Assembly (NCBI RefSeq): GCF_003018235.1
Contig: NZ_CP027437.1
Length of the DNA: 64,000 nt
From: Escherichia coli
GTDB lineage: Bacteria > Pseudomonadota > Gammaproteobacteria > Enterobacterales > Enterobacteriaceae
Direction: 5' to 3' (one strand)
Position 1 is the stretch's first letter. The number at the start of each line of letters is the position of its first letter. The position numbers are program-made. Shown here piece after piece: positions 22,608 through 23,277 of this stretch.

Positions 22608-23277
22608 TGATGGGCGGTATTCTGAAACGGCGATTGTCGTGAGAACAGAATGGTTGCACCAGAATACAGATATAAAAAAACCGACATGACAGTCGGTTTT
22701 TTTATTTTTTCCGCCCAAGACTTGGTGGTTCCGGGCAGAAATGAAACAGTCCTCATCTAGCAAGTGAATTATAAGTCAGGATGCCTACATATTCAAACAG
22801 CTATGTTGGCGATACAATCCCGACGCTAGTAGTGATACTGCCTCAAGGGATTACCGCAGTGCGGAAAAGTACTTTTAAGTCCTGGTCAGGATACAGGTGG
22901 TGCTGATTCTGGTGCTCTAATTTGGAGAGAGGCAGTCCTCATCTAGCACATGAAGAAAATCATAGTTACAGGCAACGTAAGGGTAAGCTGTGATTGTCTT
23001 TCTCCCTTAAGGGAGCAACGGATGAAAACTTTTCTCGATAAAGTTCTCATCGTTCTTAAGGCGCTAATCGCGCTGCTGGAACTGATTCGTCAGTTTATTG
23101 AATAACTGAGGAAACGTAGCTAAGGCCGAAGGTTTACCACCTTCGGCCTTTAAAAAAACCGACATGACAGTTGGTTTCATATTTATTGCCAAAATGCATA
23201 CTGTTCATGCCAGATGCGGCGTAAACGCCTTATCCGGCCTACACAATCTTGCAAAATCAATATATTGCACGCTCTTC

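Follow-up and report, generated by a model that had tools for sequence, protein, structure and literature searches.

A duplicated sRNA-terminator hairpin in a strain-variable DinQ/AgrB-type module of Escherichia coli and its probable part in rare loss of the module

A DinQ/AgrB-type module between mnmH and ybbP

The dinQ-agrAB locus of Escherichia coli K-12 is situated between arsR and gor (Weel-Sneve et al., 2013; PMC3567139). The module described here occupies 570 bp of a 64-kb stretch of E. coli DNA, which we call the window and to which all plain coordinates refer. It shares with the K-12 locus a 27-aa DinQ-family membrane toxin, a divergent AgrB-family sRNA that is antisense, at its 5′ end, to the toxin 5′ UTR, an sRNA terminator stem of the form A7CCGAC...GTCGGT6-7, and a toxin terminator that is GC-rich and has CCTTTAA after it. 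It differs from the K-12 locus in its position between mnmH and ybbP, in having one sRNA gene rather than two, in a toxin that starts with ATG rather than GTG, in having no LexA box, in a further sRNA-terminator copy that follows the toxin, and in being present in only about 24% of strains. In the literature we found no description of a DinQ/AgrB-type locus at the mnmH site, and automated annotation of the module names the toxin alone (as 'dinQ'). The features of the locus are listed below.

20521-21447: allS, with mnmH next in the gene order
21516-22610, plus strand: mnmH (selU/ybbB), tRNA 2-selenouridine synthase, from the ORF list and the RefSeq annotation of matching genomes
22625-23194: the 570-bp DinQ/AgrB-type module, delimited by comparison with the empty sites L004 and L001 and by population counts; its boundaries are ambiguous by a 2-nt TG
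22672-22705: hairpin of copy 1, a perfect 14 bp, with the core repeat at 22673-22699
22672-22760, minus strand: AgrB-family antitoxin sRNA of about 89 nt (Rfam RF02891)
22747-22768, plus strand: direct repeat D2a, in which the sRNA 5′ end is encoded downstream of the predicted start (about 22760)
22768-22796, minus strand: putative sRNA promoter, sigma-70-like, TTGAAT-17-TATAAT, by consensus match only
22933-22954, plus strand: direct repeat D2b, predicted sRNA target in the 5′ UTR of the toxin mRNA
23022-23105, plus strand: ORF of the DinQ-family type I toxin, 27 aa, MKTFLDKVLIVLKALIALLELIRQFIE (NCBIfam NF041472; PGAP 'dinQ')
23122-23150, plus strand: the toxin mRNA's own terminator, a GC-rich hairpin kept in the plasmid and K-12 homologues
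23151-23177, plus strand: copy 2, a degenerate duplicate of copy 1 according to the repeat search, the folding energy and the family comparison
23178-23194, plus strand: right end of the module, 17 nt, CATATTTATTGCCAAAA, still present in the solo (one-copy) sites described below
23282-24561, minus strand: IS621 (IS110 family) in the downstream REP element, placed by comparing its junctions with L002
24603-27017, minus strand: ybbP

The toxin passes the NCBIfam equivalog model NF041472 (toxin_DinQ) with 40.9 bits against a cut-off of 30, and its score with the DqlB model is below the cut-off of that model. The sRNA matches Rfam RF02891 over positions 1-84 of 84 (score 53.6 bits, gathering score 40, E = 4.4e-8). 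The two D2 segments form a direct DNA repeat that is identical at 20 of 22 positions, and a duplex of -46 kcal/mol is predicted between the first 32 nt of the sRNA and the toxin 5′ UTR; the sRNA thus diverges from the toxin and has a 5′ end antisense to the toxin leader. Because the matches to the toxin and sRNA models agree with the antisense geometry, we consider the module to be a member of the DinQ/AgrB family of type I toxin-antitoxin systems, in which repression of the toxin by the sRNA is predicted. The promoter of K-12 dinQ has a LexA box (CTGTATGATTATCCAG), whereas a simple pattern test for CTG-N10-CAG found none in the toxin promoter region of the present module (22770-22935). Therefore, the 'damage-inducible' label of the mnmH-site toxin is inherited from homology only, and this DinQ paralogue may be free of SOS regulation despite its annotation.

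Homologues of the toxin half, with about 70% DNA identity, are carried by about 1770 plasmids, most of them conjugative (IncX, IncFII and others). These DinQ/DqlB-type toxin records, 1543 of which are conjugative, come from Escherichia, Klebsiella, Salmonella, Enterobacter and Citrobacter, and the plasmid type is a very widespread type I toxin-antitoxin module. An AgrB-family sRNA is placed upstream of the toxin by Rfam match in all three plasmids that were examined (L139, L140 and L141, which are IncX1, IncX7 and IncFII/IncX1 plasmids), and a recombinase-family gene adjoins the dinQ/dqlB module in two of the three. The plasmid modules resemble the mnmH-site module in the sRNA-toxin layout and in the toxin terminator with its TAATAAAACC flank; unlike it, they have no second hairpin, and the stem of their sRNA terminator is CCCGAC/ATCGGG. 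In E. albertii NBRC 107761, the canonical gor-dinQ locus (L048 3540-4040) has a single agr-type sRNA gene where K-12 has agrA and agrB, which suggests, from the sequences compared, that the K-12 duplication is recent or that one copy was lost in E. albertii.

Structural variation in E. coli has a hotspot in the region between mnmH and ybbP (22611-24602 in the window), whose contents include an Rhs island, a DUF2931 island, two to four REP/BIME units, or the DinQ/AgrB module with or without IS621. The REP element directly after the module (23203-23239, minus strand) gives a sub-threshold match to the Rfam naRNA4/CssrE models (36.6 bits against a gathering score of 59.5), as is expected for REP-derived RNAs. 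IS621 is inserted between GTAG and GCCTGATAAGCG; it is present in the window and in some other genomes, such as strain H6, and absent, for example, from L002, and IS621-like sequence has many matches per genome. The element lies outside the cassette and is missing from most cassette-bearing genomes, and it is a later, separate insertion beside the module.

The two copies of the hairpin

A repeat search returned a direct repeat of 40 nt (22673-22712 and 23151-23190) with 83% identity and a start-to-start distance of 478. Its convincing part is a 27-nt core, T-A7-CCGAC-ATGACA-GT[C/T]GG-TTT, at 22673-22699 and 23151-23177, in which 26 of 27 positions are identical; the T-rich extension of the core, 13 nt long, is matched at 7 of 13 and is unconvincing. 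With up to three mismatches allowed, the core occurs at exactly two sites in the window, against 0.00 expected from 100 shuffles. An earlier reading of the window, made without database searches, had described a repeat bracketing the toxin/sRNA cassette, and this repeat is real. That sequence-only reading placed copy 1 exactly (22674-22699), whereas copy 2, which it put at 23149-23174, belongs at 23152-23177, and the spacing of about 475 has to be corrected to 478.

The bare stem A7CCGAC...GTCGGT7 is a generic terminator shape that occurs across many phyla, and the stem alone is not diagnostic. In species-representative genomes, the generalised hairpin A7CCGAC-N4-8-GTYGGTTT was found in at least 120 unrelated terminators; among the matches listed, E. 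albertii contributes only its canonical single-agr dinQ locus and an unrelated prophage terminator. We regard the two copies in the window as true duplicates because they have the identical ATGACA loop in addition to the 26/27 identity of the core.

Because the stem-loop lies inside the full-length Rfam AgrB match, we identify copy 1 as the predicted Rho-independent terminator of the AgrB-family antitoxin sRNA on the minus strand. It would be the working terminator of an sRNA that is transcribed leftwards, towards mnmH. Both agrA and agrB of K-12 end in TAAAAAAACCGAC-TTTGC-GTCGGTTTTTT, which has the same stem and tracts as copy 1 with a different loop; the likeness to these terminators extends into the sRNA body, and the canonical locus of E. 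albertii has the same terminator design. The hairpin had previously been taken for the terminator of selU (mnmH), whose stop codon is separated from copy 1 by 62 nt, and it is better assigned to the sRNA on the opposite strand. Copy 1 folds with -16.4 kcal/mol on the plus strand and -17.5 kcal/mol on the minus strand and is predicted to be terminator-like on both. The hairpin is perfectly palindromic and has tracts of A7 and T7, and for this reason it probably ends mnmH transcripts as well, which would be a borrowed function. Homology of the 13 nt left of copy 1 to the sRNA 3′ flanks of K-12 and the plasmids was also considered and was dropped, the shuffle test not being significant.

Copy 2 directly abuts the toxin's own terminator. 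Its C-to-T change puts a G-U pair into the plus-strand RNA and leaves the minus strand with an A-C mismatch, and the folding energies are -8.5 kcal/mol (plus) and -6.3 kcal/mol (minus), the minus-strand hairpin being no better than shuffles. In the homologues examined from plasmids, K-12 and E. albertii, the sRNA, the toxin and the toxin terminator are present and a second hairpin is absent; given this lack in the plasmids and K-12, copy 2 is probably a lineage-specific short templated insertion. After the toxin terminator, the plasmids read CCTTTAATAAAACC-ATATTTT and the window reads CCTTTAAAAAAACC-[GACATGACAGTTGGTTTC]-ATATTTA, and TAAAAAAACC after the toxin terminator of the window matches the plasmid flank TAATAAAACC without a gap. 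Based on this flank match, which amounts to a gap-free 9/10 match over 10 nt and a 6-mer, the first 10 nt of copy 2 look like family-conserved flank, and copy 1 appears to be the source of an insertion of about 18 nt. A patch of about 18 nt templated by copy 1 would thus have entered an A-rich flank whose sequence was already similar to the beginning of the hairpin, and a template switch between the two A7CC tracts is the likely route.

It is also conceivable, though in our opinion rather unlikely, that a second tandem unit, be it an agr-like sRNA gene or a whole toxin-antitoxin unit, was truncated at the right boundary and left copy 2 behind. Such an origin would be analogous to the agrA/agrB duplication of K-12 and to the LDR tandem arrays. 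The family provides a precedent in the agrA/agrB repeat of 231 bp (PMC3567139), copy 2 is oriented like copy 1, and the 17 nt after copy 2 can be aligned by eye, loosely and with gaps, to the start of the sRNA body. However, the Rfam search found no second AgrB match around copy 2, the similarity beyond the 27-nt core is confined to the T-rich 7/13 extension, and no genome with a tandem second unit was found. Moreover, once the 18 nt are removed, the surroundings of copy 2 fit the plasmid toxin 3′ flank at least as well, and the uninterrupted flank at the mnmH locus would read CCTTTAAAAAAACCATATTT. The LDR/ldr-rdl, zorO-orzO/zorP-orzP and ibs-sib loci are likewise chromosomal type I modules with direct repeats and a copy number that varies among strains; in contrast to them, the mnmH-site module repeats a 27-nt piece instead of the whole unit, and no two-unit genome was found. 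We therefore continue to prefer a short templated insertion as the origin of copy 2.

Whatever its origin, copy 2 might have been kept by function, as a second terminator of the toxin, as an insulator against convergent read-through from the ybbP operon, or as a second site for the sRNA, which we regard as quite unlikely. The plus-strand hairpin folds with its G-U pair, has a U-rich tail and was flagged as terminator-like; the C-to-T change keeps the pairing on the mRNA strand only; and the T allele is identical across all sampled haplotypes. Furthermore, the predicted duplex with the sRNA 3′ hairpin reaches -42.2 kcal/mol, compared with about 25 kcal/mol for opening both hairpins. However, the z-score of the plus-strand hairpin is only -1.97, the minus-strand hairpin is indistinguishable from shuffles, the other family members examined lack such an element and do without it, and one substitution cannot show selection. 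A more specific proposal is that copy 2 would be a selected RNA element that, as an exact complement of the sRNA's terminator hairpin placed at the toxin mRNA's 3′ end, makes a second sRNA-mRNA contact through the 6-nt loops AUGACA/UGUCAU, besides the 5′ UTR pairing. Because complementarity to the sRNA terminator follows automatically from the duplication, we give this docking site only a very slight chance. If it were true, the contact at copy 2 could affect decay or termination of the toxin mRNA, and a new antisense target site could then evolve when the terminator of an sRNA is duplicated.

Full, empty and solo sites in the population

The distribution of the module was determined over 5426 complete E. 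coli genomes. The left junction with copy 1 (22540-22730) is covered to at least 80% in 1329 genomes; the interior (22731-23100) has any match in 1325 genomes and at least 80% coverage in 1130; and the right end with copy 2 (23060-23200) has any match in 1326 genomes and at least 80% coverage in 1324. These near-equal counts for left, interior and right indicate that both copies travel with the cassette. Comparison of full and empty sites likewise shows that the module is one presence/absence unit with both repeat copies inside it. The full module is present in about 1324 of the 5426 genomes (about 24%), always between mnmH and ybbP.

The module is not mobile by any criterion tested. This reading is based on one copy per genome (the median number of places, all of them chromosomal), on the constant position at mnmH, on the lack of copies on E. 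coli plasmids or in phages, and on the lack of a recombinase. True plasmids have no near-identical copy and only the toxin-half homologues of about 70% identity, no phage homologues of the module were found, and the 570 bp contain only the sRNA and the 27-aa toxin. Six genomes have the cassette interior in two separate 'places'. Three PLSDB records of 1.2-4.9 Mb (CP061270.1, NZ_CP141089.1 and NZ_CP134663.1) contain the chromosomal mnmH-locus cassette at more than 99% identity, and they appear to be wrongly labelled as plasmids, being whole chromosomes or pieces of them.

In about 4095 genomes no match extends past the end of mnmH, and six of these cassette-less sites, covering the REP-only, BIME, Rhs-island and DUF2931-island types, were inspected. 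At the minimal empty site (L004), TGGGGGATTCTG stands between the mnmH stop codon and REP elements, and L001 is a BIME-expanded version of the same site. In K-12 and an O157-like strain (L005 and L007), an Rhs island follows the mnmH stop codon directly, and in L006 a DUF2931 island takes the place of the last mnmH codons. All of these sites have zero copies of the hairpin, as does every one of the six inspected. By rough estimates from an evenly spaced sampling of the left-junction ranking, the Rhs type accounts for about half of the genomes and the REP-only and DUF2931 types for about a tenth each. It had been proposed that the module integrated at the selU terminator and that empty sites would have exactly one copy of the repeat. 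The hairpin is missing from all six inspected cassette-less sites, which leaves the proposed integration without support, and the expected single copy fails for the class of about 4095 genomes; one-copy sites number five.

These five sites were found with a synthetic solo junction, a 96-nt query in which a single repeat was placed between 40 nt of the left flank and 30 nt of the right, at a cut-off of E 1e-30, half-matches in cassette-bearing genomes reaching only 2e-25. The junction is contiguous in exactly five of the 5426 genomes (E 4e-42 to 8e-39), namely AR_0077 (100% identity), GF131, LR-28, PapM-32-1 and PapRG-04-4, and alignment confirmed the structure. The count of left junctions closes, 1329 being the sum of 1324 full and 5 solo sites. 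The suggestion that the repeats could allow precise excision is thereby upheld, since the one-copy junction that it predicts exists. The one base that differs between the copies is diagnostic: it is C in copy 1 and T in copy 2 in all seven sampled cassette-bearing genomes with both copies scored, and the truncated copy 2 of GF43, the eighth sampled cassette-bearing genome, also has T. At this position the five solos carry C, C, T, T and T, and solos with either base are to be expected when the point of crossover varies within the repeat. The reciprocal junction, that of a tandem duplication, is absent from all 5426 genomes. These junction sequences indicate that the repeats mediate rare precise deletion of the cassette, and the one-copy sites resemble products of deletion more than vacant attachment sites.

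Partial deletions also occur within the module. Of the roughly 1325 carriers, up to about 195 fall short of 80% coverage in the interior. Most of those sampled are of one type (74% coverage), in which 108 bp are deleted (L003 3030-3050; about 22937-23045 in the window) between imperfect 9-nt repeats, GTCCTCATC and GTTCTCATC (GT[C/T]CTCATC). This deletion removes the target site in the toxin 5′ UTR and the start codon. GF43 had been a candidate solo and was rejected, having a 70-bp internal deletion with both copies kept. In this genome (L009 2990-3010; about 23084-23154 in the window), the toxin 3′ end and terminator are lost and the ORF is fused to copy 2, and PGAP calls a 73-aa 'hypothetical protein' across the deletion. 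Judged by what they remove, the 108-bp and 70-bp deletions should both kill the toxin.

Direction and mechanism of the probable cassette loss

The direction of change was examined with flank distances over mnmH and 1.3 kb of ybbP in a sample of 15 genomes. The solos are not a clade in this sample. PapM-32-1 is nearest to the cassette-bearing PS10-3, with 25 differences as against 43-83 to the other solos, and PapRG-04-4 is nearest to the cassette-bearing 23S01245, with 30 differences. Cassette-bearing haplotypes differ among themselves by up to 75 differences and are as diverse as the whole sample. AR_0077, LR-28 and GF131 have divergent local haplotypes that are mutually nearest or near-nearest and lie 1.4-2.4% from the closest cassette-bearing genomes; for AR_0077 and GF131 no identical cassette-bearing haplotype was found, the nearest carriers being 98.6% and 97.6% identical. 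These three could reflect one shared old event, or an older state. Two baboon isolates have micro-SNPs next to the repeat in common. We count at least two events, one of the C type and one of the T type, and probably three or four; because the locus is a recombinational mosaic, this count of events is not proof.

We infer that the solos arose from full sites and consider this direction quite probable, because the hairpin is part of the sRNA gene, full and solo sites stand at a ratio of 1324:5, no recombinase is present, and the module is found nowhere else. The opposite direction would require that the one-copy site is ancestral, that a 478-bp unit with its own hairpin integrated through it in a Campbell-type event, and that excision reverses the integration. 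One-copy sites do exist with exactly the sequence that this predicts, and the three solos on divergent, loosely clustering haplotypes could be the old state. However, the hairpin is an integral part of an AgrB-family sRNA, and it is absent from each of the six sites inspected among the roughly 4095 genomes that have no match beyond the end of mnmH. Furthermore, the solos carry either base although the difference between the copies is fixed in the sampled cassette-bearing genomes, they form no clade in the sample, two of them being nearest to cassette-bearing genomes, and the integrating unit would be a 478-bp circle with no recombinase and no means of maintenance, from a module that never occurs elsewhere. 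We therefore regard integration through a one-copy site as very unlikely and continue with deletion from full sites.

Deletion between short direct repeats proceeds by slipped mispairing or by RecA-independent recombination at short homologies. Deletion hotspots in lacI and the precise excision of Tn5 and Tn10 are classical cases, and repeats that can form hairpins favour slippage. The loss of the cassette matches this mechanism by analogy: the endpoints lie inside the 27-nt repeat, one hybrid copy is left, the repeat is a hairpin, and the same cassette has a second event of this kind in the 108-bp deletion. It differs from the classical cases in being natural variation of a population and not a selected laboratory event.

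Taken together, we think it probable that the repeats are sRNA-terminator hairpins, copy 2 being a weakened duplicate, inside a non-mobile module, and that they act as a passive substrate for rare deletion. The module would not have integrated into a pre-existing selU terminator and would hold a fixed position in the variable mnmH-ybbP region. Replication slippage or short-homology recombination between the repeats would then delete the 478 bp from one copy to the other, so that the sRNA body, both promoters, and the toxin with its terminator are gone and one hybrid hairpin is left.

The analysis clarifies the structure of a second, strain-variable DinQ/AgrB-type locus in E. coli, and it corrects the appealing reading that the module had integrated at the terminator of a gene. 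It is an ordinary though tidy case of repeat-mediated gene loss and does not overturn current understanding. It provides a natural example in which the none, full and solo states can be counted over 5426 genomes, and it indicates that in natural populations a hairpin repeat of 27 nt would suffice for a toxin-antitoxin cassette to be lost precisely. When the 108-bp and 70-bp deletions are added, it suggests that chromosomal type I toxins decay via short-repeat deletions.
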